From contig CAWIBO010000005.1 in NCBI GenBank assembly GCA_963834385.1, positions 32,001-96,000 of the forward strand: a DNA stretch of 64,000 nt, given 5' to 3'. Of this stretch, positions 31,788 to 47,398 are shown one piece after another. Numbering within the stretch: the first letter of the stretch is position 1; every line of letters starts with the position of its first letter. This stretch comes from an uncultured Verrucomicrobiae bacterium. GTDB taxonomy: Bacteria; Verrucomicrobiota; Verrucomicrobiia; Chthoniobacterales; UBA10450. A program made the position numbers and the translations under genes. The notes under the pieces are model-generated. The model had not been told where the DNA came from, did not search any database, and saw nothing but the letters and a program-made list of their open reading frames with translations.

Positions 31788-32588
31788 TCAAAACTCAGTC
31801 TTCCGCTTTCCCGGCATTGTCAGCTGGCGAAAATGAAATGTATTCGAAGAGTCCTTCTTCTCTTGCGCTGCCCACTGCGCTACCTCCTCAGCCGTCAGTT
31901 GGCTCTTGTAGCACTGCAGCGAAAGCATGGCCGTGCGCTCGTCTTCTTCAGAGAATCCAATGGAGACGTTTAGATACTGAGGAGCCACGGTGTTCAAGCC
32001 GACGCCAATGCTCTTCTTCAATTTCTCGTCGTCCTTCTGCTGCCAACCAAGATAGTAAAGAGGAAAGCGCTCGACCCACCCCTTGCTCAAGATCACCTCA
32101 GTCGTCATGTTCGAGACCATGCGGTGATCCGAGTGACCGGTATCGCCGTCCGGGCCGAAAGTCAGGATGGCATCCGGATTCAGCTCGTCGAATTTTGCCG
32201 CCAGAACGCGTTTCAACTTCGTCGATCGCTCGAAGTAAGCGCGGGTGCCATCCCTGGTATAATCGGTCGTGTCAAAGGCGTCGGTGAAGCCCAGGAAAAT
32301 GGGCGGCTGAATGCCTAGCGCGGCGCAGGCACATTCGCTCTCGGATTGCCTCAGCTTCACCAGCGCGTCTCCTGTTGGGAACCCCGGTTTAACGCCATGT
32401 CTCCCGTCCGTCACGATGATCACGTAAACCTTGTTCGTCCTGCCGTACTTCACCAGCAATTGTGCGATCGCTGCTTCGTCGTCGGGATGAGCGACCACCG
32501 CGACCATGACATTGCGCTTCTCGGCCCCCTGCGTGGCAGAGGCGAGACTCATGCCCAAGGCGAGGGCAGCGATTATCGAAGTATTCAT
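31788..32588 (-). CDS. PIG-L/LmbE family deacetylase (cassette 29 gene)
   Basis: AHPDDE, TDG, GHSDH, YKSQ; follows attC28. Confidence 0.88.
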   Translation of the reverse strand: MNTSIIAALALGMSLASATQGAEKRNVMVAVVAHPDDEAAIAQLLVKYGRTNKVYVIIVTDGRHGVKPGFPTGDALVKLRQSESECACAALGIQPPIFLGFTDAFDTTDYTRDGTRAYFERSTKLKRVLAAKFDELNPDAILTFGPDGDTGHSDHRMVSNMTTEVILSKGWVERFPLYYLGWQQKDDEKLKKSIGVGLNTVAPQYLNVSIGFSEEDERTAMLSLQCYKSQLTAEEVAQWAAQEKKDSSNTFHFRQLTMPGKRKTEF

Positions 32589-32630
32589 CGTGTGACCCTC
32601 CTGCGGGCGCGAACTAGTGTGATGCTGCAG

Positions 32631-32753
32631 GCCTCACGAGAGAGAAATGAGCGACCGCCACCGGGGTTGAGCGGGGCCTGAAGTGAATGCGATTCAGTCA
32701 TCTGAAATACAAAGGCAAAGCGGTGAGCGGTTGCCTCCATCGCCTGGTGAGAT
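32631..32753 (-). other. attC28 (degenerate; both cores GTG-type)
   Basis: gcctcacgagagagaaatgagcgaccgccacc ... ctccatcgcctggtgagat. Confidence 0.75.
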
Positions 32754-32765
32754 GCGTTCTTGCGC

Positions 32766-32981
32766 TCACGATGCGGAAATAAACTCTTCCGGGGAGACTC
32801 CCGCCTGCCTGAGGGCGCCCGCGAGCGTGCCAATTTTGAGCTCACGGTGAGTCGGGATAACGCAACCTGCCGCACCGCGCCGCAGCACAACATGGCTCCC
32901 GCGCTGACGCGCAACCGAAAACCCGAGGCGCTCAAGCCGTCGAACCGCCTCAGCGCCAGAGATCCGCGGAAGTCTAGGCAC
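32766..32981 (-). CDS. hicA: HicA-family toxin (cassette 28)
   Basis: LERLGFSVARQRGSH, IPTHRELKIGTLAGALRQAG. Confidence 0.88.
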   Translation of the reverse strand: MPRLPRISGAEAVRRLERLGFSVARQRGSHVVLRRGAAGCVIPTHRELKIGTLAGALRQAGVSPEEFISAS

Positions 32982-33183
32982 GAGAAGCAGCCACTTCGAA
33001 GGTAGTGACCAGCGGCTGACCGGCCGCCTGCAATGGAAACTCCTCAAGGTAGAGCTCTGTCGCCTCGCGGAGATTTGCAATGGCTTCGGGCACGCTCTCG
33101 CCCTGTGTGGTCGAGCCTGTTTCGGGATTGAGGGCGATGAAGCCGCCCTCCTCCGCCGGAATCAAAACGGCTGTCAGAACCAT
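32974..33183 (-). CDS. hicB: HicB-family antitoxin (cassette 28)
   Basis: EEGGFIALNPE..TQGESVPEAIANLREATELYLE. Confidence 0.88.
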   Translation of the reverse strand: MVLTAVLIPAEEGGFIALNPETGSTTQGESVPEAIANLREATELYLEEFPLQAAGQPLVTTFEVAASRA

Positions 33184-33244
33184 AGTGCAGTGTCGATGGC
33201 GAGATGCTGCGGGTCAAGATCGCGATCTGGCTTCGAGCGTCAGC

Positions 33245-33400
33245 ATCTAAAGAGAACAAGGTGAGCGACGGCGGACGACCGTGCCCGCAGTGTTACAGCG
33301 TTGCAGGCGGGGGGCGCGCGTCGCTCGGCGTGGAAAGGTGGAAGTCATCTCAAAAGTGAAGCGCAGAGCGGTCCGCCGTGCGCCCATGGCATGGTCAGGT
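33245..33400 (-). other. attC27 (family B with 33-bp insert; both cores mutated)
   Basis: atctaaagagaacaagg...gtccgccgtgcgcccatggcatggtcaggt. Confidence 0.75.
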
Positions 33401-33808
33401 CTTCGGCGACGCGACCACAGACTTTTTCAAGCGGTGATTCGCTCCCCAGGCGCCTCCTAGAATGCACACGATAAATAGTATGCCACCGTTGAAGTGCGCC
33501 GCGCCGGAAAGCATACGCAACAGAAAGGCTACACAGAAATACACAAGCAGCGCAACGCCGCAGCCGCGCCAGAAGCCGAACCGCGGCTCATCCTCCATAT
33601 CCACGAAATGAACAGGGTGCTCCGCAAGGATCCGATCGGCCTCGGCTGCGCTTTTCTCGGGCACGCGCAGGAGCACCGCGCACATGCCTGCAGGCGCGAA
33701 AACCGCGGCAGCTTCGTGATCAAGGACCGCCGGGATACCCGCTGCCTCAAGCAGCGACTGCGCGAATCCGGCTTCACCTATGTTTTGGTAGCTGCGGAGC
33801 GTGATCAT
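33395..33808 (-). CDS. DUF2007-like membrane protein (cassette 27)
   Basis: EAGFAQSLLEAAGIPA..LRVPE..AEADRIL plus two TM segments. Confidence 0.7.
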   Translation of the reverse strand: MITLRSYQNIGEAGFAQSLLEAAGIPAVLDHEAAAVFAPAGMCAVLLRVPEKSAAEADRILAEHPVHFVDMEDEPRFGFWRGCGVALLVYFCVAFLLRMLSGAAHFNGGILFIVCILGGAWGANHRLKKSVVASPKT

Positions 33809-33811
33809 AAG

Positions 33812-33917
33812 GCCTAACGAGAAAGAGATGAGCCACCGCGCGAATTACGATTGGTGTTCATATGCAGGAAATCCAAGCATAAGGACGGTGGGCGGGTAGC
33901 TCCATCGCAGGTTTAAA
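33812..33917 (-). other. attC26 (family D)
   Basis: gcctaacgagaaagagatgagccaccgc ... ggtagctccatcgcaggttt. Confidence 0.75.
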
Positions 33918-34677
33918 CGGTCGGGCGGCGCGCAGAGAAACGCTGCTTCTGCGGGTTGTAATAAAGATCTGGCCTGCTGTGCCACTCATGCTCGACGCCA
34001 CGCATGAGGAGAGCACAATCCAGCTCGACGCTGCCTTCGGGGAAGCGCGATCGATCTGAAAAGAAACTCGTGTGCGCATCCTCAACCTCCATCGGATCGA
34101 TACTCCAATCCAGACTCCGTAGCTCCATGCCGTGATAATGTCCCTCCTGTCGCGTAGCTGAGTAGCCGGTTGCTCCCAGCGAGAAGAACGAAGCGGCTTG
34201 CTCCACCGTGTCGAAGAGGCTCGTCTCGGGTAGGGCTTGCCCCAGCCAACCCTTAAAATGTGCTTCCTCGCTGCCGTCCTGACGTCGAATGGTCACGGAG
34301 ATCTCATCGACGGTTTCCTCCGCGACGAAACTGCCCTTGTCGAAAATGCCTGGAAACACGGTGCCACCGAGAAGTTCGTTAAGCGTGGAATTCGTGTCTC
34401 TGCGGGGAATGAAAACACCTTCCCTTATTCCGTCGTCTTGATCCCATTCCACCGCGATTCGGTGCGCCGCATTCTCGGATCCTAAGCCGAGCCATGCTGG
34501 CAGCATCCGCGGGCGTAGCTCGCGGAAGCGTATCATGCAAACTCCTCCAATGCCTTTTCCGCGGAACACCTTCGGGCGGAAACCCGAAGGCAGTGCTTGC
34601 TGCAATACCTCGGGATCGATGTGGTAATTCAGGAGAATACGCCGATCAATAATTCCGTGGATCGTATCGAGTAGCAT
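33913..34677 (-). CDS. DUF2071-like protein (cassette 26)
   Basis: RRILLNYHIDP, SENAAHRIAVEW, GVFIPRRDT. Confidence 0.75.
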   Translation of the reverse strand: MLLDTIHGIIDRRILLNYHIDPEVLQQALPSGFRPKVFRGKGIGGVCMIRFRELRPRMLPAWLGLGSENAAHRIAVEWDQDDGIREGVFIPRRDTNSTLNELLGGTVFPGIFDKGSFVAEETVDEISVTIRRQDGSEEAHFKGWLGQALPETSLFDTVEQAASFFSLGATGYSATRQEGHYHGMELRSLDWSIDPMEVEDAHTSFFSDRSRFPEGSVELDCALLMRGVEHEWHSRPDLYYNPQKQRFSARRPTV

Positions 34678-34694
34678 GAAGCGTGGCTTTTCCA

Positions 34695-34823
34695 GTCCAA
34701 CGAGACATAAGATCAGCTGCCGGGAGTCCGAGGTGCGTGCCACGCAGCATACGCTACAGACGGTAGACGCTCCAAGCGTAAACGGAGGGCTTGCTGGCGG
34801 TCAGCGGCATCGGCTGGTGAGAT
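34695..34823 (-). other. attC25 (distinct family; R'' non-canonical)
   Basis: gtccaacgagacataagatcagctgcc ... ggtcagcggcatcggctggtgagat. Confidence 0.72.
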
Positions 34824-34836
34824 GCGTTGCGCGACA

Positions 34837-35052
34837 TCACAGATCGCGTGGTGTGAGGCCGGTCTTCTTCGCAATGCGCGCCAACATCCGTGGGCCGATC
34901 TCCTCGCTGTCGTGGAACGCGAACACTGTGTCTGGCCAGCCGGGCCTCGACAGAATGCGGTGTGAACCGCCCGCTTCGCGTTTGATCGTCCAGCCGATCC
35001 GCAGGAGCGCGGCCAAAACTCGGCGCGCCTTCGCGGAACCCCACTCGCTCAT
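34837..35052 (-). CDS. hicA: HicA-family toxin (cassette 25)
   Basis: LLRIGWTIKREAGGSH, FAFHDSEEIGPRMLARIAK. Confidence 0.88.
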   Translation of the reverse strand: MSEWGSAKARRVLAALLRIGWTIKREAGGSHRILSRPGWPDTVFAFHDSEEIGPRMLARIAKKTGLTPRDL

Positions 35053-35258
35053 GCCGCCGCAACAGAAAACACCTGCTGAATCTCAGGCGAGCTTTCGCCC
35101 TGCTCGATTCGCTCAGCCAGCACGCGAAGCGCCAGAGCCTCCACGCGTGCGACCGCCTCGTCGCGGGAAGTGCCGTATGACATCGCACCGGGAATCTGCG
35201 CAATCTCTGCGATCCAGCGCCCGTCCGTCTCCTGTTCGACTTCGACCGTGAATGTCAC
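35049..35258 (-). CDS. hicB: HicB-family antitoxin (cassette 25)
   Basis: EQETDGRWIAEIAQIPGAMSYGTSRDEA. Confidence 0.85.
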   Translation of the reverse strand: MTFTVEVEQETDGRWIAEIAQIPGAMSYGTSRDEAVARVEALALRVLAERIEQGESSPEIQQVFSVAAA

Positions 35259-35311
35259 GCCAAGAGGATGCCGCAAATGGACGACGAAGACAAGCGCGGC
35301 ATCAGGAATAG

Positions 35312-35459
35312 CTCTAACGAGAAAAGGATAAACGACGGCGGACGACCGTGCCCGCCGTGCTACAGGCGGGGGCGCGCGTCGCTCGAAGTGGAAGGGTGGA
35401 AATCATCTCAAATGCGGAGCGCACAGCGGTCCGCCGTTCGCTCCATCGCAGGGTTAGAC
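35312..35459 (-). other. attC24 (family B with 24-bp insert)
   Basis: ctctaacgagaaaagg...gtccgccgttcgctccatcgcagggttagac. Confidence 0.88.
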
Positions 35460-35654
35460 GGCGACTTGCTCAAAGGAGATGTTCGGAATGTCCTCTACTC
35501 TCTTCTGAGCGTGCTCCACAGTGATCCCGCAGATGTGCCCATCCGCGTCAAGATCGAGCACCGTGTCCTCGTCGAGGTCGCGCGTCTCTGCGACATGCGC
35601 ACCACGAAACTCGATGTAGAGCGTATCAGTGTCTCGGAAGTAGCGAATCTTCAT
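35454..35654 (-). CDS. DUF2283 family putative antitoxin (cassette 24)
   Basis: MKIRYFRDTDTLYIEF..LDLDADGHICGITVE. Confidence 0.8.
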   Translation of the reverse strand: MKIRYFRDTDTLYIEFRGAHVAETRDLDEDTVLDLDADGHICGITVEHAQKRVEDIPNISFEQVAV

Positions 35655-35887
35655 GGACGAAATGAACGATCGAAAAAGGCGTTGTGCACGGTCTCGGCGT
35701 CGGGAAGAAGTATAACGCGCAAATAACGCCCGTCCATCTCGGCGATAGGCGCCCAACGGCGAATGCGACCGTCCTGCTGAATCTGCTCGCGCACGGGGTG
35801 GGCGACGACACGCTCGATCCACTCGAGACGAATCGCCGTGCGATCTGGCCGCTGCCGCATGACCTCAAAGTAACGCGTGAACTGCAC
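35651..35887 (-). CDS. Putative toxin paired with DUF2283 (DUF4258/RelE-like; cassette 24)
   Basis: EWIERVVAHP..DGRIRRW..YLRVILLPD..VHNAFFDR; ATGA overlap with DUF2283 gene. Confidence 0.7.
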   Translation of the reverse strand: MQFTRYFEVMRQRPDRTAIRLEWIERVVAHPVREQIQQDGRIRRWAPIAEMDGRYLRVILLPDAETVHNAFFDRSFRP

Positions 35888-35930
35888 ATCGCAGAATAGC
35901 GCAGGCGTCGCTCACAGAAAAGACGAAGCC

Positions 35931-36224
35931 GTCTAACGAGAACAGGATAAACGACGGCGGACGACCGTGCCCGCAGTGTTACAGCGTTGCAGGCGGGGGG
36001 CGTGCGTCGCGAGGAATGGAACGGACTGGCAAGCCGTGACATAGACCTGAGGCCGAAGGCTGAACGAGTCGCGCGAGTGAATCAATGGAACGGACTGGCA
36101 AGCCGTGACATAGCCCTCAGGCCGAAGACTGAACGAGTCGCGCGAGTGAATCAATGGAAGTGTGGAAGTCATCTCAAAATATTGACGCAGAGCGGTCCGC
36201 CGTTCGCTCCATCGCCTGTTAGAC
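35931..36224 (-). other. attC23 (294 bp; family B with 33-bp and 2x69-bp inserts)
   Basis: gtctaac...gttagac arms intact; tandem units at 36015-36152. Confidence 0.85.
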
Positions 36225-36641
36225 GTTTGCGGGTGAATCGGAGTCATCGCCAAGAAAGTATAAATCAAGATCGAGCGGGATGCCTAGCGCCGTAATCCGC
36301 TGAAGGATTTCCGGCGAGAGGTGTATGCCGGGAGTAAAATCTTCGTAGTAAATGGTGCAACAGAGTTCGACGGAAAACTCTGCGGCACACTCTCGGATGC
36401 GCGCGGCGTGCGGCTCCAGCAGCGGAAGCAACGCCTCAAGATGCTTTTCAACGTGCGCCTCAAGTGAAAGTGGGCTCTGGAAGCTCCACCGACTGTGATT
36501 TCGGGTCGCTGCAGGATGTGGTGGCATCGGATCGCCGCGTCGCCAAACAGAAGTCGGTGATAAGCCCACGCGCGATGTAACAATCGAAGGATCATCGCCG
36601 AAATCGAGAACCTTCAGAAAAACGTGTGACTTGTCTGGCAC
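36219..36641 (-). CDS. DUF4279-like protein (cassette 23)
   Basis: DPSIVTSRVGLSPT..WRRGD, ILQRITALGIPLDLDLY. Confidence 0.75.
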   Translation of the reverse strand: MPDKSHVFLKVLDFGDDPSIVTSRVGLSPTSVWRRGDPMPPHPAATRNHSRWSFQSPLSLEAHVEKHLEALLPLLEPHAARIRECAAEFSVELCCTIYYEDFTPGIHLSPEILQRITALGIPLDLDLYFLGDDSDSPANV

Positions 36642-36654
36642 GGAGAGCGTTTAC

Positions 36655-36777
36655 GTCTAACGAGAGAGAAGTGAGCGACCGCCACCGGGGGCGAGCGGGG
36701 CTCGAAGTGGAAGGGTGCGAGTCATGGAAAGCCTGGACTTTCGCCGGGTGGCGGTTCGCTCGACTGACGGGTTAGGT
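36655..36777 (-). other. attC22 (family A)
   Basis: gtctaacgagagagaagtgagcgaccgccacc...ggtggcggttcgctcgactgacgggttaggt. Confidence 0.92.
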
Positions 36778-36954
36778 GGTGGACGGTGCGCGCAGGGGCA
36801 GGCCGGAACGGGCAGAGCTGGAAACCAGAGAACGGTCCGCTGCATGCGGAAGATGGAACCAGATGCTCTGGGAAAACGCGATGCCATATTCGCGCGGGTG
36901 ATCCCCTCCTACGGCGCCGCAAAAGCCGCCGCCCGCGAACGAACGCACACAACC

Positions 36955-37076
36955 ATCTAACGAGAAAGAAGTGAGCGACCGCCACCGGGGGCGAGCGGGG
37001 CCGAAGTGGATGGTTCCGGGTCATGGAAAGCGAGGTCTTTCGGCGGGTGGCGGTTCGCTCGACTGGTGGGTTAGGT
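36955..37076 (-). other. attC21 (family A)
   Basis: atctaac...gttaggt with family A arms. Confidence 0.92.
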
Positions 37077-37358: not shown

Positions 37359-37481
37359 ACCTAACGAGAGAGAAGTGAGCGACCGCCACCGAGGGCGAGC
37401 GGTGCTCGAAGTGGATGGTTGCGAGTCATGGAAAGCGTGGGCTTTCAGCGGGTGGCGGTTCGCTCGACTGACGGGTTAGAT
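37359..37481 (-). other. attC20 (family A)
   Basis: acctaac...gttagat with family A arms. Confidence 0.92.
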
Positions 37482-37763
37482 GTTTCAGCGCCAGGTACCA
37501 TCAAAAAGAGGGTGATCATCGCTCTTCGCTTCTCGCGGCGACGTCTGTCCGGCCGAACGGAGGTGTCAGGCATCGGCTCCGGAAGCGCGAGCCGTAGTTG
37601 TATGCCACTCGAGTTCGAGCGGAGCCAAGGTGCGATATAGCTGCAAATCCCACAGAAGCAGGGTGCCGACGAACGACGGCCGAATTAGGGCCGCGACGCT
37701 GGCAGGCTGTAGGTGGAAGATGCGCATACAGAAAACAGGGCGATTATCAGCGCGCGCGGTGCC

Positions 37764-37888
37764 ATCTAACGAGAAAGAAGTGAGCGACCGCCACCGAGGG
37801 CGAGCGGGGCTCGAAGTGAAAGGTTGCGGGTCATGGAAAAGCGAGGTCTTTCGGCGCGGTGGCGGTTCGCTCGACCGATGGGTTAGAC
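37764..37888 (-). other. attC19 (family A)
   Basis: atctaac...gttagac with family A arms. Confidence 0.92.
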
Positions 37889-38229
37889 GCTGCGGCGTCA
37901 CTCGCTGGACCGCGGACGAAGCTGCACCAAACGACGCGCAACGACTGTAGATAGCCAGTAGCGCATAGGGCCGAAAGATTGCGTCGGGAATCGCTATGAT
38001 GAAAAGCGCCGGGTGCCGAGCGTGCTCCGGCAGCCACAGAAGAGGAACCGCGAGGAAGTGATAAGCGTTCCGACTAACTGGAGGGGTCAATCGTCAGGTA
38101 TGAGTGTCAGCGACACGTCGAAACAGCGAATGACTCCTTCGACCAAGACAGGCTCGCAAATGGACGTAAAGCACTCCGGCAGCTCAGAGCGAAGATGATC
38201 AGTCGATGCGGCATCGCTCGGAGTCAGAC

Positions 38230-38359
38230 GTCTAACGACCCCAAGCTCAGCGACTGCGGAGGCGCGGCGCACCGGCTGCGGAAAGGTGGCTGGGGGCGAA
38301 GGCGGCGGGAGCAGCCGGTGTGACGCGCCGGAGCAGTTCGCTGCAGCGCATGGTTCGGC
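38230..38359 (-). other. attC18 (family C)
   Basis: gtctaacgaccccaagctcagcgac...gttcgctgcagcgcatggttcggc. Confidence 0.85.
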
Positions 38360-38381
38360 GTTGCGGCTGTTGTCTGTGAAG

Positions 38382-38738
38382 TCATCGAGAAGCGAACAAA
38401 TCTCCGGGCAGTAGTTGGGCGGCCGCGAACGTAGCAAGAATGTTGATGAGCGCGACGACGAGCAAAACGACTGGAATCAGTGGAACGCCGACAAGCCACT
38501 CCGGGACGTGCAGACGACCGTAGAGAAAACGGTAAAGTGGTCTGCCAACTGCGATGGCTACCGTAATGTCTGCTGCGAGAAGACAGATGCCGAGGACGCT
38601 AAGCCACGAGCCCTGTGATAGCCAGAAAAGCGGGACGACTGAGGCGGCGGCAAGTGTGATGAGTAACGCCGCGAGACTGCCGACATCGGATAAACCTGCC
38701 GCTGCGAGTAACGCGGAGACAGAAACGCTTTCAGTCAT
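38382..38738 (-). CDS. Membrane hypothetical protein (cassette 18)
   Basis: Hydrophobic ORF bounded by attC17 and attC18. Confidence 0.6.
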   Translation of the reverse strand: MTESVSVSALLAAAGLSDVGSLAALLITLAAASVVPLFWLSQGSWLSVLGICLLAADITVAIAVGRPLYRFLYGRLHVPEWLVGVPLIPVVLLVVALINILATFAAAQLLPGDLFASR

Positions 38739-38755
38739 GGGATGACGCGAGCATC

Positions 38756-38878
38756 GCCGAACGAGAGAGAAGTGAGCGACCGCCACCGAGGGCGAGCGGG
38801 GCTCGAAGTAGAAGGGTACGGGTCATGGAAAGCGAGGTCTTTCGGCGGGTGGCGGTTCGCTCGACTGATGGGTTAGAT
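38756..38878 (-). other. attC17 (family A, R' = GTTCGGC)
   Basis: gccgaacgagagagaagtgagc...gactgatgggttagat. Confidence 0.9.
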
Positions 38879-38897
38879 GTTGCGGCGCCGTAAGAGC

Positions 38898-39110: not shown

Positions 39111-39113
39111 TAC

Positions 39114-39236
39114 ATCTAACGAGAGGGAAGTGAGCGACCGCCACCGGGGGCGGGCGTCGCTCGAAGTGGAAGGTTGCGAGTCATGGAAAGCGTAGGCTCT
39201 CGGCGGGTGGCGGTTCGCTCGACTGATGGGTTAGGT
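39114..39236 (-). other. attC16 (family A)
   Basis: atctaac...gttaggt. Confidence 0.92.
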
Positions 39237-39698
39237 GTCTGGACGGTCATTCTCGCAGTGCAAACTATACACGATCGGAATGCGAATATCTTGCGGCGTT
39301 CCCTGCCGCAACCGCCAACGATGAAGAGTGTCTTCAACAGCATGCGTAAGCCAGGCAGGCGCAGTGCTGCGAAGAACCCTAGTCTGGCTCACCGCACCGT
39401 TGGTCGTGACGCGTAGCTGCACAAGCATGGTCGGCTCTAGGTATCGAAGACGCGCCGCATATGGGTAAGGCGGAAGCGGTGCATACTCGGCGTAGGTCGG
39501 CCTCGGAACACGGCGGACATGAGCAGGCGATCGTTGAGGGGGCGGCGCGTAGCCAGGGTCCCCCACTAGCGAGCAATCCAGCGTAGGAACCGCCCGCCCG
39601 CAAACGAATAACGGAGGCATCGTGGCGACGTTGATCGTATTGACGCCGGTGCAGGCACCAATTAGGCACGCGAACATAACAGCCGCGGCGCGTGTCAT
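39231..39698 (-). CDS. Lipoprotein-like protein with TonB-C-like domain (cassette 16)
   Basis: LIGAC lipobox-like; PPYPYAAR..VLRST..LHRWRL. Confidence 0.6.
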   Translation of the reverse strand: MTRAAAVMFACLIGACTGVNTINVATMPPLFVCGRAVPTLDCSLVGDPGYAPPPQRSPAHVRRVPRPTYAEYAPLPPYPYAARLRYLEPTMLVQLRVTTNGAVSQTRVLRSTAPAWLTHAVEDTLHRWRLRQGTPQDIRIPIVYSLHCENDRPDT

Positions 39699-39700
39699 AC

Positions 39701-39824
39701 ACCTAACGAGAAAAAGATGAGCGACGGCGGACGAGGGCGTCCGTCGCTCGCAGTGGGATTGCTGAAGTCATCTCAAAAGTTAATCGCACAGCGGTCCGCC
39801 GTTCGCTCCATCGCATGGTTAGGT
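39701..39824 (-). other. attC15 (family B)
   Basis: acctaacgagaaaaagatgagcgacggcggac...gtccgccgttcgctccatcgcatggttaggt. Confidence 0.92.
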
Positions 39825-39825: not shown

Positions 39826-40287
39826 TCAGCGAACGGGCTCCGGCTTCCTGGTGAAGGTCGGTAACTGCGCGATCACTTCGAGAAGGCGATCTACGTCCGC
39901 TTGCTGCTTCGCGGCGACCCAAATGTTTGCCTTCCAATAGTCATTGAGCTTGATCACGGCCTCTTGCATTACAGAGCCGTCGCTTGCGACGGCTCTGTGC
40001 CACTCCACCGAAAAAATGCCAAGCTTCCCCGACACGACCTTACTGTCCGGCTCGGGAGTGAAGTCTGGCCAGCCGCCAAGATAGAAGCCAACGTAGCCGA
40101 CAAGCGGAGGATTCGCGTGGCCGTAATAAACGTCGAAGTCAGGTCCTCTCACTTTTGTCCACGTGAATGCTTTCGGCGACACGGGTCCGAGAAACTTGGA
40201 CAGTTCTTTCGGCGCGATCGGCTCGCCGGGTTGCTGAGTGGCCGCAATGCTCGAGACGAAAAGCGATACGAATAGGAGCGCGCGCAT
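39826..40287 (-). CDS. Secreted hypothetical protein (cassette 15)
   Basis: Signal peptide; fills the cassette. Confidence 0.7.
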   Translation of the reverse strand: MRALLFVSLFVSSIAATQQPGEPIAPKELSKFLGPVSPKAFTWTKVRGPDFDVYYGHANPPLVGYVGFYLGGWPDFTPEPDSKVVSGKLGIFSVEWHRAVASDGSVMQEAVIKLNDYWKANIWVAAKQQADVDRLLEVIAQLPTFTRKPEPVR

Positions 40288-40290
40288 AAG

Positions 40291-40413
40291 ACCTAACGAG
40301 ACAGAAGTGAGGTGCCGCCACCGAGAGCGAGCGTGGCTCGAAGTGATAGTGGTTTAGTCATGGAAAACGTGAACGCTCGGCGGGTGGCGGTTACCTCGAC
40401 TGATTGGTTAGAT
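40291..40413 (-). other. attC14 (family A variant)
   Basis: acctaac...gttagat. Confidence 0.88.
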
Positions 40414-40663
40414 CTGACATCACCAGCCCCGCGGTGCCTTCGAGGGTGAAGCTTGGTAACGGAAACAGATCCATTCGTAATTTTACGCCGGGATAATTGA
40501 GAGCGGCGTGGAGATGACCGCGCAAGGCGGCGTCGCTTCGTGTGCGAACTGGGGGGCGGCCGTCCAGGGCGAATATAGAAGCGTTAAAGGTGGGCTCGAT
40601 CCCAAACGCTGTCAGCGATGAGCTTGTAAGCACAACTAGAAAAAGGATGGATGACCAGTGCAT
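40391..40663 (-). CDS. Secreted hypothetical protein (cassette 14)
   Basis: ATG overlaps core GTTAGATG; signal-like N-terminus. Confidence 0.55.
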   Translation of the reverse strand: MHWSSILFLVVLTSSSLTAFGIEPTFNASIFALDGRPPVRTRSDAALRGHLHAALNYPGVKLRMDLFPLPSFTLEGTAGLVMSDLTNQSR

Positions 40664-40784
40664 CTAACGAGAGAGAAGTGAGCGACCGCCACCGAGGGCG
40701 AGCGGGGCTCGAAGTGGATGGTCCCGAGTCATGGAATGCGAGGTCTTTCTGCGGGTGGCGGTTCGCTCGACTGACATGTTAGAC
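40662..40784 (-). other. attC13 (family A)
   Basis: atctaac...gttagac. Confidence 0.92.
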
Positions 40785-41042
40785 CTTCGCGCGTCGCTGA
40801 CCAAACGCCTTCTGGAAAGAAGCTAGGTGCAAGCGAAGCTCCTGCCACTTTCTGGTGCTCCGTTTCGGGGGCACCGGGAGATCCGGCCCGATGAAGACGC
40901 AACGTGCACAACACTGAGGGCACTTAACGCGACCGGCACCGATCGTGCCTACCTGCTCGGGGTAAAGCTGCGTGACTAAGCGAAAGGTCTCGGACCTCAC
41001 TCCAATGCGGCAATCGAAGCACACCCAGTTCCCGCGGCACAT
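40779..41042 (-). CDS. Small CxxC zinc-ribbon-like protein (cassette 13)
   Basis: CFDC, CPQC, G.D..VPPK....W. Confidence 0.65.
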   Translation of the reverse strand: MCRGNWVCFDCRIGVRSETFRLVTQLYPEQVGTIGAGRVKCPQCCARCVFIGPDLPVPPKRSTRKWQELRLHLASFQKAFGQRRAKV

Positions 41043-41046
41043 GTGG

Positions 41047-41169
41047 GTCTAACGAGAGAGAAGTGAGCGACCGCCACCGAGGGCGAACGGTGCTCGAAGT
41101 GAATGGATGCGAGTCATGAAAAGCGTGATCGCAGAGCGGTCCGCGGTTCGCTGCATCGCCTGGTTAGAC
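41047..41169 (-). other. attC12 (A/B chimera)
   Basis: Family A left arm, family B-like right arm; gtctaac...gttagac. Confidence 0.88.
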
Positions 41170-41478: not shown

Positions 41479-41488
41479 GCGCGGAATC

Positions 41489-41614
41489 GTCTAACGACCC
41501 AAGCTCAGCGACAGGCGGAGTGGGCGCGGCTCCTGCCGGTGGGTGGAAGGGCGGCGGTCGTCTGCCGCAGGAGCCGTGACCGCGGAGCCTGTTCGCTGCA
41601 GTGCATGGTTAGGC
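41489..41614 (-). other. attC11 (family C)
   Basis: gtctaacgacccaagctcagcgacaggc...gcctgttcgctgcagtgcatggttaggc. Confidence 0.88.
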
Positions 41615-41648
41615 GATGCGGCCGATTGCAGTGCGATCTTGAAGCCAC

Positions 41649-42035
41649 TCAGCTCTCATACATATGGTAGGTTTTGGCGATGATGCGCCAAGCGCCGTCA
41701 AGTTTGATGAGGGTGTGAAAGTCGGTGTAGTCCGCGCCGATGGCGTCCTTCTCCATGTCCACGCGCACCACTGCCGTCGTGGGCGTGATCGCCAACACGT
41801 CGATCCGCGTCTGAATGTCGGGGGCAGTGCCGTTGGCGGCAACGAAGTCGTAGAGATTCTTGATCGGGCCGCCGAGTAACTCGCCGTTGGTGAAGCCATA
41901 CATCACAGCGTCCTGATGGAAGGCTTCGCCGAGGCCAGCGACGTTTCCGACGCGCAGCCCGTCGACGTATTTGGTGACCGTCGCGACGACGTCTGCATAA
42001 TCTTGAGTGGGCACGGTTTTGATGTTTTTTGTCAT
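41649..42035 (-). CDS. NTF2-like / putative lumazine-binding protein (cassette 11, copy of cassette 6)
   Basis: KYVDGL..AFHQDA, YTDFHTLIKLDGAWRIIAK. Confidence 0.82.
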   Translation of the reverse strand: MTKNIKTVPTQDYADVVATVTKYVDGLRVGNVAGLGEAFHQDAVMYGFTNGELLGGPIKNLYDFVAANGTAPDIQTRIDVLAITPTTAVVRVDMEKDAIGADYTDFHTLIKLDGAWRIIAKTYHMYES

Positions 42036-42113
42036 GAGATTGATTTTGGTGTGATGGTCGGAGAAACTAGAGGGTGGCAAAAATTGGCTTCATGTTCGGT
42101 GAGCGCGAGCAGC

Positions 42114-42236
42114 GCCTAACGAGAACAAGATGAGCGACCGCCACCGGGGGCGAGCGTCGATCGGAGGTGGATTGACTTAGTCATGGAAAATGTGGAGCGA
42201 AGCGGGTAGGCGTTCGCTGCATTGCCTTGGTTAGGC
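42114..42236 (-). other. attC10
   Basis: gcctaac...gttaggc; near-identical to attC5. Confidence 0.88.
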
Positions 42237-42252
42237 GGCATTGAAGTCAAGC

Positions 42253-42666
42253 TTATCGTGGTGGAAATGCGCCGAGCTGCATCATCAGACCGAGGGCATC
42301 CATGATGATGCGCGTGTCTTTGATTTTGCCGGCCTCAAGCCGGTCAATGACCACGCCCCACACCCTGACTGGGCGTCCGGTGGCGGGCACGCCAAAAAAC
42401 TCCGCCTTGTGCGTTCCCGTCCACTCGAAGCGTGTCATCACCTTGTCGCCTTCGGTAATCTGTTCCTCGACCGTCCAGTGCATGTCTGGAAACGCGGCCC
42501 GCATGCCACGCAAGACGTTTTTCAAACCGGCCAAGCCTGGTCCTTGCCCGGGAAGCGGAACGTGCTCCACCATATCCTCCCAAAAGAACTGCCCAGCGGC
42601 GTCGATATTCCCTTGGCTTAAAACTTCCTCAACGAAACTTCGGACAATGTTGCTGTTACTTTGCAT
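42253..42666 (-). CDS. SnoaL-like ester cyclase (cassette 10, copy of cassette 5)
   Basis: AFPDMHWTVEEQI.EGDKV, GTHKAEFFGVPATGR. Confidence 0.88.
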   Translation of the reverse strand: MQSNSNIVRSFVEEVLSQGNIDAAGQFFWEDMVEHVPLPGQGPGLAGLKNVLRGMRAAFPDMHWTVEEQITEGDKVMTRFEWTGTHKAEFFGVPATGRPVRVWGVVIDRLEAGKIKDTRIIMDALGLMMQLGAFPPR

Positions 42667-42682
42667 AAATGGTGGTGTTGCC

Positions 42683-42791
42683 GCCTAACGAGAACAAGAT
42701 GAGCCACCGCGCAAATTACGAGGGGCTTTCGTGATGCAAAAAAATCTGGGCATACGGACGGTCCGCGGTGGGCTCCATCGCACGGTTAGGT
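42683..42791 (-). other. attC9 (family D)
   Basis: gcctaacgagaacaagatgagccaccgc...gcggtgggctccatcgcacggttaggt. Confidence 0.88.
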
Positions 42792-42803
42792 GCACGTGTG
42801 GCT

Positions 42804-43250
42804 TCATCGCAACGGTCGGAATGATGAAACATTAGTAAGCTCGGCCGGCGACAGACCCATGTGACCGAATCCAAGCGCCGTAACGGACTCGAACTCTCGA
42901 CCATCGTCGCGCTTCAGAATCTCGCGACGAATTTCGGGGCGATAATGAAATAGGCCGACGACTCGCACATATCGATTGGAGAGTCGGCTCACTCTCCTCC
43001 ATCCGGGTGAGACCCAAATGCTGCACGAAAATATGCCGCCCGCCGGAGCATGATCGCAATGGCCATCCGGCGAAGTATAAAGGCTGGTCTCTTCCAGGTC
43101 CGATACGTAATAGCCGATGACCGCGATGCGCTTGCCGACGAAATCGCCCGGCCGCGCGAAAAGCTCCGCGACGGTGACGTCGCCCTTCTGACGTTTCGCC
43201 GTGCAACCGGGTAGAAGCAGGACCAGGCTGATGTAGCAAACAAGCCTCAT
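42804..43250 (-). CDS. Putative lipoprotein (cassette 9)
   Basis: LLLPGC lipobox-like; OB-fold-like GKRIAVIGY. Confidence 0.65.
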   Translation of the reverse strand: MRLVCYISLVLLLPGCTAKRQKGDVTVAELFARPGDFVGKRIAVIGYYVSDLEETSLYTSPDGHCDHAPAGGIFSCSIWVSPGWRRVSRLSNRYVRVVGLFHYRPEIRREILKRDDGREFESVTALGFGHMGLSPAELTNVSSFRPLR

Positions 43251-43252
43251 GC

Positions 43253-43369
43253 ACCTAGAGAAGTGATCGACCGCCACCGGGGGCGAGCGGTGCTCGAAGT
43301 GGAAGGTTGTGGGTCATGGAAAGCGAGGTCTTTCGGCGGGTGGCGGTTCGCTCGACTGACAGGTTAGCT
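43253..43369 (-). other. attC8 (family A with 6-bp deletion removing the R' GTT)
   Basis: acctagagaagtga instead of acctaacgagagagaagtga. Confidence 0.85.
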
Positions 43370-43824
43370 CATTCTACGTAGCGTCGGCTCGACAACAGTG
43401 CCGTCAAAATGGCATCAGAATCGACGGTCGCGGATCCGCCTCGGCTAAACCTCGCCCTCAAGGATGGGAGAGACAGATGAACTCATAAAACCACCTTACT
43501 AGAGACCATGGCGCGCCCTCGCCGAGGCTATATCTCTCTGACTTCGCCAGCTCGATCTTGATGATGGCGATATCGTCAGCTTCCGGCGAACGGCGCTTGC
43601 CGGCTGTCCTTTGCGTATCCGTGTGGCGGCTCGTGATCGTGAGCGGTGGATCTTGTGCGCCAGGCGCCCAATCTGGAGTGCGGCTCAGCGTATCGATGTC
43701 CGTCACATACTGGACGCGCTTGCCCCTGGCATCGGTCATATCAGAGAGGACCACCCGCGACGGCCCCTGTTCTTGACGACCACGCAGGCGTAGCGGCGAG
43801 AATCAGGAGCAACAGTGCGCGCAT
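43370..43824 (-). pseudogene. Secreted hypothetical protein, frameshifted (cassette 8)
   Basis: ATG 4 nt after the attC7 TAG, MRALLLLILAA signal; continuation in a different frame (43458-43754). Confidence 0.45.
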
Positions 43825-43826
43825 AG

Positions 43827-43950
43827 AGCTAACGAGAACAAGATGAGCGACGGCGGACGAGGGCGCGCGTCGCTCGGAGTGGAAGGGTGGAAGTCATCTC
43901 AAAAGTGGCGCGCACAGCGGTCCGCCGTTCGCTCCATCGCATGGTTAGGC
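43827..43950 (-). other. attC7 (family B)
   Basis: agctaac...gttaggc. Confidence 0.92.
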
Positions 43951-44278
43951 CTCGCGCGTGACATCGGGTAAATCATCTATAGAATCCGCCGACGCGAAGC
44001 ACGCGACATAGTCAATGTCTTCGACTGGCTCATCGTACCCTTTCGATCTCATAGGCTTCAGCCTCAGCAGGGACCAAAGCAGCCAAATCTGGGGGCATGA
44101 CCCAATACGTATCGTCTCCCTTGCCTTCGACGCGAACCAGCAGTCCGCCGACTTCGGCAGACTCGATGACGCCGCAAAACGCAGTGAATGTCTCTTTGCC
44201 ATCGCCACTGATATCGCGAAGACTGACCAGAACACGCTTGCCAATAAAACGTTCAGCAAGTTGTGGCGTGTATTCCAT
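43945..44278 (-). CDS. Hypothetical protein (cassette 7; probable frameshift near 44045)
   Basis: MEYTPQLAERFIGKRVLVSL..MPPDLAAL; C-terminal EPVEDIDY in another frame ending in R''. Confidence 0.6.
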
Positions 44279-44280
44279 GG

Positions 44281-44572
44281 GCCTAACGAGAACAAGATGA
44301 GCGACGGCGGACGACCGTGCCCGCCGTGTTACAGCGTTGCAGGCGGGGAGCGCGTCGCGAGGAATGGAACGGACTGGCAAGCCGTGACATAGACCTGAGG
44401 CCGAAGGTTGAACGAGTCGCGCGAGTGAATCAATGGAACGGACTGGCAAGCCGTGACATAGACCTGAAGCCCGAAGGCTGAAGGAGTCGCGCGAGTGAAT
44501 CAATGGAGGGTGGAAATCATCTCAAAGTGGCGCGCACGGCGGTCCGCCGTTCGCTCAATCGCATGGTTAGGC
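44281..44572 (-). other. attC6 (292 bp; family B with hairpin insert and 69+70-bp tandem units)
   Basis: gcctaac...gttaggc; tandem units at 44363-44501. Confidence 0.85.
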
Positions 44573-44606
44573 GATGCGGCCGATTGCAGTGCGATCATGA
44601 AGCCAT

Positions 44607-44993
44607 TCAGCCCTCATACATGTGGTAGGTTTTGGCGATGATGCGCCAAGCGCCGTCAAGTTTGATGAGGGTGTGGAAGTCGGTGTAGTCCGCGCCGATG
44701 GCGTCCTTCTCCATGTCCACGCGCACCACTGCCGTCGTGGGCGTGATCGCCAACACGTCGATCCGCGTCTGAATGTCGGGGGCAGTGCCGTTGGCGGCAA
44801 CGAAGTCGTAGAGATTCTTGATCGGGCCGCCGAGTAACTCGCCGTTGGTGAAGCCATACATCACAGCGTCCTGATGGAAGGCTTCGCCGAGGCCAGCGAC
44901 GTTTCCGACGCGCAGCCCGTCGACGTATTTGGTGACCGTCGCGACGACGTCTGCATAATCTTGAGTGGGCACGGTTTTGATGTTTTTTGTCAT
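44607..44993 (-). CDS. NTF2-like / putative lumazine-binding protein (cassette 6)
   Basis: Same motifs as 41649-42035. Confidence 0.82.
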   Translation of the reverse strand: MTKNIKTVPTQDYADVVATVTKYVDGLRVGNVAGLGEAFHQDAVMYGFTNGELLGGPIKNLYDFVAANGTAPDIQTRIDVLAITPTTAVVRVDMEKDAIGADYTDFHTLIKLDGAWRIIAKTYHMYEG

Positions 44994-45071
44994 GAGATTG
45001 ATTTTGGTGTGGTGGTCGGAGAAACTAGAGGGTAGCAAAAATTGGCTTCATGTTCGGTGAGCGCGAGCAGC

Positions 45072-45198
45072 GCCTAACGAGAACAAGAAACGAGCGACCG
45101 CCACCGGGGGCGAGCGTCGATCGGAGGTGAATTGACTTAGTCATGGAAAGTGTGGAGCGAACAGCGGGTAGGCGTTCGCTGCATTGCCTTGGTTAGGC
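45072..45198 (-). other. attC5
   Basis: gcctaac...gttaggc. Confidence 0.88.
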
Positions 45199-45214
45199 GG
45201 CATTGAAGTCAAGC

Positions 45215-45628
45215 TTATCGTGGTGGAAATGCGCCGAGCTGCATCATCAGACCGAGGGCATCCATGATGATGCGCGTGTCTTTAATTTTGCCGGCCTCAA
45301 GCCGGTCAATGACCACGCCCCACACCCTGACTGGGCGTCCGGTGGCGGGCACGCCAAAAAACTCCGCCTTGTGCGTTCCCGTCCACTCGAAACGTGTCAT
45401 CACCTTGTCGCCTTCGGCAATCTGTTCCTCGACCGTCCAGTGCATGTCTGGAAACGCGGCCCGCATGCCACGCAAGACGTCTTTCAAACCGGCCAAGCCT
45501 GGTCCTTGCCCGGGAAGCGGAACGTGCTCCACCATATCCTCCCAAAAGAACTGCCCAGCGGCGTCGATTTTCCCTTGGCTTAGAACTTCCTCAACGAAAC
45601 TTCGGACAATGTTGCTGTTACTTTGCAT
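45215..45628 (-). CDS. SnoaL-like ester cyclase (cassette 5)
   Basis: Same motifs as 42253-42666. Confidence 0.88.
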   Translation of the reverse strand: MQSNSNIVRSFVEEVLSQGKIDAAGQFFWEDMVEHVPLPGQGPGLAGLKDVLRGMRAAFPDMHWTVEEQIAEGDKVMTRFEWTGTHKAEFFGVPATGRPVRVWGVVIDRLEAGKIKDTRIIMDALGLMMQLGAFPPR

Positions 45629-45644
45629 GAATGGTGGTGTTGCC

Positions 45645-45713
45645 GCCTAACGACGAGTGGAGCGATGAGTCGGAGCGAAGCGGAGACTCATTCGCTCACA
45701 CGATTTGTTAGGC
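45645..45713 (-). other. attC4 (short, 69 bp)
   Basis: gcctaacgacgagtggagcgatgagtc...gactcattcgctcacacgatttgttaggc. Confidence 0.88.
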
Positions 45714-46157
45714 CGCGTTCGAGAGGCGCTTGCGAAACACTCGCTGCGTCTTGGTGTGTCGAAAGGATAAACTCTCATAAAACTTGTGGGACTCTGCGCG
45801 CTCCTCACGGCAACGCACAGACAAGTCTACAGCTCCGCGCTCCACCGCCCAACCCTCAACTGACTGAACTAATCGCCGCCCAATGCCACTCCGCCGCCAT
45901 CGCTCGTCGACAATCAAGCCGCCAATCTCCACACGAAAGTCCGACTCCAAAAGCTGGCAAAGATAACCGTGAATCCAGCCTGCTAACTCCCCGCCTGGCA
46001 CTTCGGCCACCATAAGGCGGTCATCTTCCACTCCAAACATCCGCTCCATGCGCACCCGTATCGCCGCCTCGGAGACCGGATAGCCGAGTTGTGAAGTCAA
46101 CCGCGCCAACTCTGCTGCGTCCGATTCAACAGCTTGTCTGATTATCGGCTGGGACAT
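45708..46157 (-). CDS. GNAT family N-acetyltransferase (cassette 4)
   Basis: LIVDERWRRSGIGRRL, SHKFYESLSF. Confidence 0.88.
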   Translation of the reverse strand: MSQPIIRQAVESDAAELARLTSQLGYPVSEAAIRVRMERMFGVEDDRLMVAEVPGGELAGWIHGYLCQLLESDFRVEIGGLIVDERWRRSGIGRRLVQSVEGWAVERGAVDLSVRCREERAESHKFYESLSFRHTKTQRVFRKRLSNAA

Positions 46158-46165
46158 ACGAAGCG

Positions 46166-46289
46166 GCCTAACGAGAACAAGATGAGCGACGGCGGACGAG
46201 GGCGCGCGTCGCTCGGAGTGGAAGGGTGAAAGTCATCTCAAAAGTGGCGCGCACCGCGGTCCGCCGTTCGCTCCATCGCATGGTTAGGC
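46166..46289 (-). other. attC3 (family B)
   Basis: gcctaac...gttaggc. Confidence 0.92.
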
Positions 46290-46298
46290 CTGGGCGTG

Positions 46299-46715
46299 CT
46301 ATCGCGCTGGACGTCGAAGAATATTGTCATAATCGCCGTGCGCGATCTTCTGTGCAATGACCCGCACCTGATCGTCTGACCCGATGCAGCCGATCATCGT
46401 CTCGACGCGGTCCTCGCGGGATGTGAAGGCAGGAAGAGCCTGCGTAAAGGCAGCGGCGTCGCTGAGCCGCAGGCCAAGAAGTGCGTAGAGCTGACCCGCG
46501 GGCGATGCCGAATCGACGAGTCGCCGAAACGTCGCAACACGATCAGCCTGGCCGAGCGCCGCGCGAAGAGCGTGCTCTCCGTCGGAGGTGCGGGCACCAT
46601 CGCTGATGGGACCGACCGCAAAGAATGCGGCCCGCTCCAAGCTCGGCTTCTCCTTAGCGGCAACGTGCAGCACGGCGCAGGTCGTAAGCACGAGTAGAAG
46701 CGCAACGCGGTGCAT
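46299..46715 (-). CDS. Secreted hypothetical protein (cassette 3)
   Basis: Signal peptide; SPAGQLYALLGL..VETMIGC. Confidence 0.7.
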   Translation of the reverse strand: MHRVALLLVLTTCAVLHVAAKEKPSLERAAFFAVGPISDGARTSDGEHALRAALGQADRVATFRRLVDSASPAGQLYALLGLRLSDAAAFTQALPAFTSREDRVETMIGCIGSDDQVRVIAQKIAHGDYDNILRRPAR

Positions 46716-46717
46716 AG

Positions 46718-46841
46718 GCCTAACGAGAACAAGATGAGCGACGGCGGACGGGAGCGCGCGTCGGTCGGATTAAAAGTGTGAAAGTCATCTTAAAAGTGGC
46801 GCGCACCGCGGTCCGCCGTTCGCTCGATCGCTGGGTTAGGT
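46718..46841 (-). other. attC2 (family B)
   Basis: gcctaac...gttaggt. Confidence 0.92.
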
Positions 46842-47272
46842 GACAGCTTCCATAGCTCACGGGCTCTCGAGATATATTCCATTTGGTGCGGATCGCTCTG
46901 CGGCTGGATGAAGGTGAGAAAGTCGAGAAGCGCTTGTCTCTGCGCAGCCGTGTATCCGCCGGTCGGCTGGAAACGAAACTCGTCGCTGAGGGAATAGAGG
47001 AGAAACTGCGTAACGGTAGACTCTGGATCGCGGGCGGCGACTCGCAGGTATGCGGGCAGATAATAACGCTTCGCGTCGTCTGACATGAACACAAGCTGGT
47101 CGAAGCTGCGCTTGACCCAATCGTCTGCAAGCTCCTCTGGCGTGCGACCACGTAAATCGCCTCGCAGCGTGTCGCACTCGTCGCAATGGTGCGGCACCAA
47201 CGCGTCATCTGCGGGAGCGGCCGCACTGGAGAAGGCCTCGCGAATCTGCTGCATGAGGTCGTCGTATGACAT
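46790..47272 (-). CDS. Hypothetical protein, DUF6714-like (cassette 2); reads into attC2
   Basis: IREAF, HCDEC, FMSDDAKRYYLPAYL. Confidence 0.7.
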   Translation of the reverse strand: MSYDDLMQQIREAFSSAAAPADDALVPHHCDECDTLRGDLRGRTPEELADDWVKRSFDQLVFMSDDAKRYYLPAYLRVAARDPESTVTQFLLYSLSDEFRFQPTGGYTAAQRQALLDFLTFIQPQSDPHQMEYISRARELWKLSPNPAIERTADRGARHF

Positions 47273-47284
47273 GACGCGGCTGTC

Positions 47285-47398
47285 ACCTAACGAGAGAGAA
47301 GTGAGCGACCGCCACCGAGGGCGAGCGGTGCTCGAAGTGGAAGGTTTCGAGTCATGGAAAGCGTGGCTTTCGGCGGGTGGCGGTTCGCTCGACTGATA
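47285..47398 (-). other. attC1, main part (interrupted by IS; R'' remnant at 48901-48908)
   Basis: Family A attC ending ...ctcgactgata, resumed by ggttagat after the IS. Confidence 0.9.

Follow-up and report, generated by a model that had tools for sequence, protein, structure and literature searches.

The DNA analysed here, a window of 64,000 nucleotides (nt) covering positions 32001-96000 of contig C5 of the source genome (an uncultured Verrucomicrobiae bacterium, G000), contained a chromosomal integron of a Chthoniobacterales-type family whose cassette array extended along the minus strand as far as about 31800. The array was adjoined by an integron-type tyrosine recombinase, whose matches were annotated integron integrases, and it held 28 attC recombination sites. 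This report deals with the short open reading frames (ORFs) within these sites. An ATG-initiated ORF that ended at the R' core or ran through it was present in 22 of the 28 sites; 20 of these ORFs stopped at the TAG of the core and two ran on through cores without TAG. The sites fitted the anatomy of attC, namely RYYYAAC ... GTTRRRY boxes, paired arms and cassette genes in between. Their predicted folds had z values of -3.3 to -6.0 at five of the six sites folded, with -1.3 at a site of family D, and the sites gave no Rfam match at gathering score (there were two weak matches, both below gathering). The cassette genes included members of the GNAT, SnoaL, HicA-type and PIG-L families, and a Pfam match was obtained for 14 of 25 proteins, integrase and transposase among them. 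The features were as follows, in window coordinates.

47287..47355, minus strand: attC1, mini-ORF of 69 nt
46720..46788, minus strand: attC2, mini-ORF of 69 nt, next start 4 nt after it
46168..46236, minus strand: attC3, mini-ORF of 69 nt
45647..45691, minus strand: attC4, mini-ORF of 45 nt in a 69-nt attC of another type
45072..45198, minus strand: attC5, exception, distance of loop ATG to TAG 71 nt and ORF continuing to 45025
44283..44390, minus strand: attC6, loop ATG out of frame (238 nt), with a second, in-frame ATG at 44390 that opens a 108-nt ORF from an inserted module
43829..43897, minus strand: attC7, mini-ORF of 69 nt
43255..43317, minus strand: attC8, mini-ORF of 63 nt, degenerate core
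42685..42753, minus strand: attC9, mini-ORF of 69 nt in a 109-nt site of family D
42116..42184, minus strand: attC10, mini-ORF of 69 nt
41505..41606, minus strand: attC11 (family C), ORF opened by an ATG in the 5' arm and closed by a TGA that lies 14 nt ahead of the core TAG
41049..41117, minus strand: attC12, mini-ORF of 69 nt
40664..40732, minus strand: attC13, mini-ORF of 69 nt, stop abutting the next ATG (40663)
40293..40361, minus strand: attC14, mini-ORF of 69 nt
39703..39771, minus strand: attC15, mini-ORF of 69 nt
39116..39184, minus strand: attC16, mini-ORF of 69 nt
38731..38826, minus strand: attC17, run-on mini-ORF of 96 nt ending in ATGACTGA, its stop overlapping the start region of the next gene
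38247..38351, minus strand: attC18 (family C), ORF opened by an ATG in the 5' arm and closed by the TGA of the L' box, 15 nt ahead of the core TAG
37766..37834, minus strand: attC19, mini-ORF of 69 nt
37361..37429, minus strand: attC20, mini-ORF of 69 nt
36955..37076, minus strand: attC21, exception, distance of loop ATG to TAG 68 nt
36657..36725, minus strand: attC22, mini-ORF of 69 nt
35933..36172, minus strand: attC23, mini-ORF of 240 nt with two 69-nt modules
35314..35406, minus strand: attC24, mini-ORF of 93 nt
34691..34823, minus strand: attC25, exception, degenerate site with a non-TAG core
33814..33861, minus strand: attC26, mini-ORF of 48 nt
33247..33348, minus strand: attC27, mini-ORF of 102 nt
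32585..32701, minus strand: attC28, run-on mini-ORF of 117 nt, sharing an ATGA with the gene that starts at 32588
49144..49245, minus strand: attI mini-ORF of 33 codons, its ATG back-to-back with the intI start, its stop the TAG of the first core, the next gene 3 nt on (49140)
49244..50266, plus strand: integron integrase gene intI (Pfam Phage_integrase and SAM_4; 52.5% identity to IntI1)
47444..48547, plus strand: IS110-family transposase (Pfam), adjoining attC1

The initial annotation had described an ATG-to-TAG frame of 69 nt at attC1, 2, 3, 7, 9, 10, 12, 13, 14, 15, 16, 19, 20 and 22, and this frame was present at all 14 sites. The length variants that it gave, 93 nt (attC24), 102 nt (attC27), 240 nt (attC23), 63 nt (attC8), 45 nt (attC4) and 48 nt (attC26), were all recovered, as was the stop of cassette 2, whose ORF ends at 46790, 1 nt before the attC2 ATG at 46788. 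Among the exceptions that it named, attC5 (71), attC21 (68), attC6 (238) and attC25 stood, but family C (attC11 and attC18) did carry ATG ORFs, which began in the 5' arm and terminated at a TGA 14-15 nt short of the core TAG. The short distances to the next gene were found at 40663 (0 nt), at 39698, 43250, 43824 and 46715 (4 nt), at 40287 (5 nt) and at 41042 (6 nt), although other cassettes started 10-44 nt away. Nevertheless, evidence from this single window was weak, because families A and B were homologous, so that the copies did not represent 14 independent events, and because the core TAG was fixed by its pairing with the CTA of R''; the core TAG alone was no evidence for selection on an ORF. 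On 880 homologous sites the pattern did exceed chance.

To obtain these sites, loci were gathered by the attC 3'-arm pattern alone and attC was called with weight matrices that covered only the two arms; therefore, the loop sequence had no part in the calling. At least 887 unique attC sites came from at least 343 loci and two stretches of the source genome, and removal of 7 fused doubles left 880, of which 706 were 120-127 nt long, 68 were about 96 nt long and 106 were of other types. The set was a sample that leaned towards genomes with many matches. Of 354 other genomes in the family, at least 220 contained the 3'-arm pattern itself (a tally that took in three unpublished genomes, none used further), and the named records with the pattern were, among the matches listed, mostly metagenome-assembled genomes of Chthoniobacterales or Verrucomicrobiae, so that the host probably belongs there as well.

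An ATG ORF of at least 30 nt, open to the core, was found in the TAG frame at 619 of the 880 sites, compared to 53 and 86 in the other two frames. The bias was seen at 120-127-nt sites (493 of 706 vs 28 and 49), at 96-nt sites (61 of 68 vs 7 and 12), where the ATG stood at a non-homologous place, and among the other types (65 of 106 vs 18 and 25). When a stop in the last 21 nt was allowed, which took in the TGA of the L' box at 138 sites, the count for 120-127-nt sites rose to 613 of 706 and the other frames stayed at 28 and 49. An earlier set dereplicated at 80% (108 sites) gave 56 in the TAG frame and 8 and 13 in the others. The position of the start differed between types: in 96-nt sites the distance from the ATG to the TAG end was 81 nt and the ATG followed the TAA of R'' by 7 nt, and the ATG of the 129-nt type lay 114 nt from the TAG end and likewise 7 nt after the R'' TAA, in five of five sites. 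Loop ATGs outside positions 67-71 were in frame in 253 cases vs 22 and 66 in the 880-site set. Other families of the class were represented by a small sample of 38 sites. Bias was slight in family f7, where the TAG frame was the open one in 5 of 25 sites when stops within the last 21 nt were permitted; in family f11, 9 of 11 sites showed the bias, two of them 124-nt sites like those described here.

Selection on the frame was measured from single-difference codons between nearest-neighbour pairs of at least 75% identity, in the region 66 to 21 nt from the TAG end; gapped pairs were left out, so that 702 of 753 pairs were used. Substitutions that create or remove an in-frame stop numbered 0 in the TAG frame vs 34.6 expected, and the other five frames had ratios of 0.73-1.51. 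With a site-specific null the corresponding figures were 0 vs 20.4 expected and 0.84-1.06. Thus, the expected depletion of in-frame stops across homologous attC sites was borne out. Nearest-neighbour pairs share sequences, except in the test with 200 disjoint pairs, where 0 stop substitutions were observed vs 9.9 expected; the purging also persisted without the source genome and in both identity bins.

These results bore directly on the possibility that the ORFs have no function, in that an ancestral attC possessed an ATG and an open frame by chance, which were then kept by recombination-site constraints or by read-through from upstream genes. It was consistent with this possibility that the 120-127-nt sites form one homologous family with a TAG fixed by R'' pairing, that the ATG columns were only 80-89% conserved, that a control frame in the 5' loop fell to 0.50 under the global-spectrum null, which calls for caution, and that the 96-nt type was borderline. 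For the latter, 0 substitutions were observed vs 10.0 expected under the global null, with two antisense frames also low, and 0 vs 2.9 (p=0.053) under the site-specific null. On the other hand, stop gains were absent from one of six frames in sites that otherwise varied freely, the same frame bias appeared in the unrelated attI sequences described below, and the attC types of sister family f7 had little bias. Upstream read-through could not account for the open frame, since only 20 of 529 cassettes had an upstream gene that continued as far as the core TAG. This explanation was thus largely refuted, and we consider it hardly tenable.

The start codon was also conserved. At the ATGA positions, changes were roughly half as frequent as in the flanking positions (50, 35, 40 and 37 vs 94, 86, 98 and 76 changes in 513 pairs), and where the ATG was lost in one neighbour the codon was GTG in 22, ACG in 8 and ATA in 6 of 53 cases. 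A T-tract and the ATGA were the most conserved columns of the loop, which might instead indicate an internal promoter or a leaderless start, the more so as promoters within cassettes are already known. However, a TANNNT was not conserved in the column profile between -12 and -7 relative to the ATG, and a promoter alone left the purging of stops from one frame unexplained, so that this origin of the motif appeared extremely improbable. We also rejected an antisense ORF from the loop ATG, for which antisense stops were not purged in the 123-nt type (ratios 0.84-0.91) and the start context was weaker (0.30).

Length changes agreed with selection on the frame. Frameshifting changes numbered 41 on the 3' side of the ATG vs 102 on the 5' side (525 pairs); by parsimony (n=452), there were 31 length changes 3' of the ATG vs 104 5' of it, and 27 vs 71 in the loop outside homopolymers. 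Translation was the sole explanation that we found for the purging of stops from one of six frames together with the exchange of ATG for GTG, and it is very likely to be the correct one. Judged by sequence comparison, selection for translation of the mini-ORFs was strongly supported, and the attC mini-ORF is real, selected and widespread in this bacterial family, far beyond the window.

The attI site carried a comparable element, which the initial annotation had not mentioned. Of 61 integrase matches with flanking DNA, the 41 in which a core could be recognised were used, and the 20 without one were left out. The TAG frame was free of stops over 90 nt in 40 of the 41 sites vs 7 and 13 for the other frames, with total stops of 2, 61 and 43. 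An in-frame ATG or GTG was present in 38 of the 41, mostly at 99-108 nt, and the ORF had about 32-35 codons at most sites. The attI sequence was unrelated to that of attC and attI peptides differed widely, although attC and attI peptides ended in the same last residues. By these comparisons attI carries the same device as attC, in a layout like that of orf11. An inverted repeat with 8-nt arms lay at 49160-49190 within the attI ORF, with similar repeats in relatives, and probably represented binding sites for the integrase or a regulator.

The shared peptide end raised the question of whether the peptides are functional themselves, as regulatory or stalling peptides. Such a role would agree with the omega values, which were 0.78 and 0.67 for the TAG frame and exceeded 1 for the other sense frames. 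Nevertheless, constraint on the peptide sequence appeared weak: the part encoded by the loop varied freely between subfamilies, lengths ranged from 12 to 88 codons, and the common end was imposed by the recombination site. A function of the peptides was therefore highly improbable.

The initial annotation had taken the lack of room for a ribosome-binding site before the next gene as evidence that ribosomes are delivered from attC. This argument did not hold. Although the 16S tail of the host had the anti-Shine-Dalgarno (anti-SD) core, SD-like 4-mers preceded 56 of 413 unambiguous host starts (13.6%) vs 11.0% of 3934 internal ATGs (with a simple gene finder), suggesting that the host is nearly SD-independent; genes without SD were thus ordinary here. 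An SD was found before 22 of 549 cassette genes and before 1 of 429 loop ATGs, a count that does not include the attI ATGs. Akkermansia has been listed among SD-scarce organisms in the part of the source consulted (PMC10783764).

The loop ATG had a start context like that of host genes. Its start-context score had a median of 1.93, compared to 1.19 for held-out host starts and -1.94 for internal ATGs. Predicted folds placed it in an unpaired or weakly paired loop, and its opening cost was 6.2 vs 8.7 kcal/mol for host starts (70 each). The other two frames mostly stopped at the loop ATG, by its ATGA in 361 of 429 cases, 1 nt before it (TGA-N-ATG) in 182 of 429 and just after it in 67. We rejected occlusion of the next gene's start by the hairpin, for which the difference was only marginal (9.8 vs 8.7 kcal/mol for host starts, p=0.053).

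Distances to the next gene were counted in 549 of 637 cassettes, namely those with one dominant forward ORF. The next gene started within 6 nt of the TAG in 298 and within 20 nt in 421 of the 549, with usual gaps of 0, 4 and 5 nt. It has been reported that translational coupling is nearly lost by about 20 nt (PMC10666635, seen in part). Where the core had lost its TAG, the ORF had been claimed to run on to a stop overlapping the next start; both cases in the window (38826-38731 and 32701-32585) agreed with this claim. The sample supported it less well: 23 cores lacked TAG, 20 of which had a downstream start, and the stop lay near it, within -12 to +5 nt, in only 8 of these 20, 4 of them being ATGA overlaps.

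Taken together, these features would be consistent with the following mechanism. Ribosomes might start without an SD at the exposed AUG in the attC loop; in 96-nt and 129-nt attC, initiation would take place at an AUG 7 nt past the usual stop of the upstream gene. Over the next 22 codons or so, the ribosome would traverse the 3' arm and melt the hairpin, and it would terminate at the core UAG or at a UGA 15 nt earlier. Having stopped just before the next gene, it could re-initiate there, to the benefit of that gene. Since the core UAG arrives with whichever cassette follows, termination would occur just before the next gene in any order of cassettes. We therefore consider it fairly probable, on the evidence of frame, start and spacing, that the attC and attI mini-ORFs serve as a ribosome relay by termination-reinitiation, which fits best because the selected frame ends at a stop that every incoming cassette supplies, within coupling distance.

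The main rival explanation was that the ORFs are translated for protection of the transcript. Ribosomes on the C-rich, G-poor loop would block Rho loading or RNase cleavage and extend transcription of the array, and re-initiation would be incidental. It ranks as the main rival because the loop has this composition (33% C and 12% G at d45-66), rho is present in the host (two strong matches, at G000:C2:180018 and C2:1256100, one above the family cut-off), and poor translation or an untranslated 3' stretch has been reported to lower downstream mRNA in class 1 arrays (PMC11511950, seen in part). The selection signals in attC and attI fitted it equally well, and the starts of the next genes were not strongly occluded. 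However, transcript protection does not depend on a stop at the core TAG, and still it was the TAG frame that proved selected in three attC types and in attI; moreover, about 55 nt from the upstream stop to the loop ATG would be left uncovered in the 123-nt type unless ATGs of the 5' arm were used. We regard this explanation as possible but rather unlikely, and relay and transcript protection can coexist.

Several observations weighed against the relay. The loop ATG was 1-2 nt out of frame in 35 of 452 sites, and the next gene was more than 20 nt away in 128 of 549 cassettes. The remaining non-TAG cores comprised 3 in-frame fusions and 9 uncoupled cases. The next gene's own ATG was hardly less accessible than host starts, as noted above. 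Integron cassettes in general often have short 5' leaders. Indels on the 3' side, expected to be enriched for multiples of 3, were not (2 of 43 vs 6 of 108 on the 5' side, Fisher p=1.0), and large inserts preserved the frame in only 12 of 25 cases. Deletion of attC in class 1 integrons altered downstream expression in only a minority of cassettes, according to the part of PMC11511950 that we consulted. In sum, the initial interpretation stood as far as the frame was under selection, with no stop gains, fewer 3' frameshifts and exchange of ATG for GTG, and as far as a relay fitted the anatomy; its arguments from missing SD sequences, from indels in multiples of three and from run-on ORFs were not supported.

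The concept itself was not new, although an attC-encoded version had at first been taken as unknown. In class 1 attI1, ORF-11 ends at the core TAG, its peptide sequence matters little and it is coupled to the next gene (PMC8876359, seen in part). ORF-11, like ORF-17 and ORF-18, resembles the ORFs described here in that a short frame spans the crossover point and is closed by the TAG in the GTTRRRY core of the incoming cassette, as far as the partly seen source describes it. In contrast, ORF-11 comprises 11 codons preceded by an SD of its own, and the first cassette is the only one that it serves, whereas here SDs were nearly absent from loop ATGs, the attI ORF had about 32-35 codons at most sites, and nearly every attC repeated the device. 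The mini-ORF would thus work like orf11 and yet is not a member of that group, because it has no SD and does not lie in attI1 (the integrase being 52.5% identical to IntI1).

For attC, the same partly seen source (PMC8876359, citing Jacquier et al. 2009) stated that a short ORF within attC can relieve the hairpin barrier and favour downstream translation by termination-reinitiation, and another termed attC ORFs anecdotal (PMC11511950, also seen in part). ORFs of that kind have been described, in the parts seen, for a few class 1 cassettes, under a model in which the stop of the preceding gene supplies the ribosome; those described here were family-wide and selected, and had their start codon in the loop about 50 nt past R''. 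They also resembled ordinary termination-reinitiation pairs in that stop and start were a few nt apart, with the ATGA overlaps at 4 of 20 non-TAG cores and at most loop ATGs. Such pairs typically overlap by 4 or 1 nt (PMC10666635, in the part seen), whereas the gaps here were 0, 4 and 5 nt and the upstream partner was a shuffle-proof adaptor rather than a gene. A family-wide selected attC or attI ORF, or such an ORF for the integrons of this lineage, was not found in the full-text literature searched, outside which most subscription papers and supplements lie; the parts seen of PMC4670013, PMC3375312, PMC8632094 and bioRxiv 2020.08.07.237602 added nothing on conserved attC ORFs. What appeared new was therefore the family-wide selected version and its attI counterpart.

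Several further observations concerned the structure of the array. At attC1, beside the IS110-family transposase, the R'' box was absent from its normal place, and about 350 nt of unexplained DNA (within 47400-48900) separated the transposase from the first cassette gene. A two-cassette block encoding a lumazine-binding-like and a SnoaL protein was present twice (41590-42690 and 44550-45650, 97-99% identity) with different attC types upstream. After attC7, attC19 and attC18 (43458-43824, 37480-37765 and 38090-38230) there was no single long ORF from the expected start, and these cassettes may be frameshifted or decayed. Three two-gene cassettes resembling toxin-antitoxin pairs, two HicA and one DUF2283, lay at the distal end of the array (32766-33183, 34837-35276 and 35454-35887), with starts at least 29 nt past the core. 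A solo attC of the same family, 160 nt long and with its loop ATG out of frame, was located far from the integron at G000:C5:389324.

Repeats were found both within attC loops and next to the integrase gene. A palindromic module of 69 nt was present in two copies each in attC23 and attC6 (35997-36192 and 44345-44507), the only sites of the source genome in which it was found. In other genomes (L316, L344, L054 and L058) it sat at varied loop positions on either side of the loop ATG, and it may be a small mobile repeat with attC as its target. Two more modules, another of 69 nt and one of 84 nt, were likewise repeated in attC loops (L034, L046, L332, L333 and L338; L189, L161, L020 and L315), and stacked modules brought some sites to 282-304 nt. 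Intergenic simple repeats with units of 6-7 nt extended 3' of intI (50270-52760), and similar purine-rich units replaced the loop of some attC sites in relatives (L032, L127, L286 and L288).

More broadly, it is conceivable, though we put it forward only tentatively, that the integrons of this SD-independent lineage of soil bacteria possess a built-in translation system independent of cassette order, in which attI and nearly every attC would be both a recombination site and a selected mini-gene, and ribosomes arriving in any frame would be directed first to the loop AUG and from there to the following cassette. If this is true, expression would decay little along the array, contrary to the model based on distance to the cassette promoter (Pc), and newly captured genes would be translatable without signals of their own. 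The finding bears on how promoterless, leader-poor cassettes deep in chromosomal arrays get translated. The test for stops and frame can be applied to any attC collection, and the natural attC designs suggest ways of combining recombination with the handing on of translation. While attC hairpins have usually been regarded as barriers and attC ORFs as anecdotes, the attC of this family had a second, measurable layer of selection for an open frame, at hundreds of sites and throughout the family.

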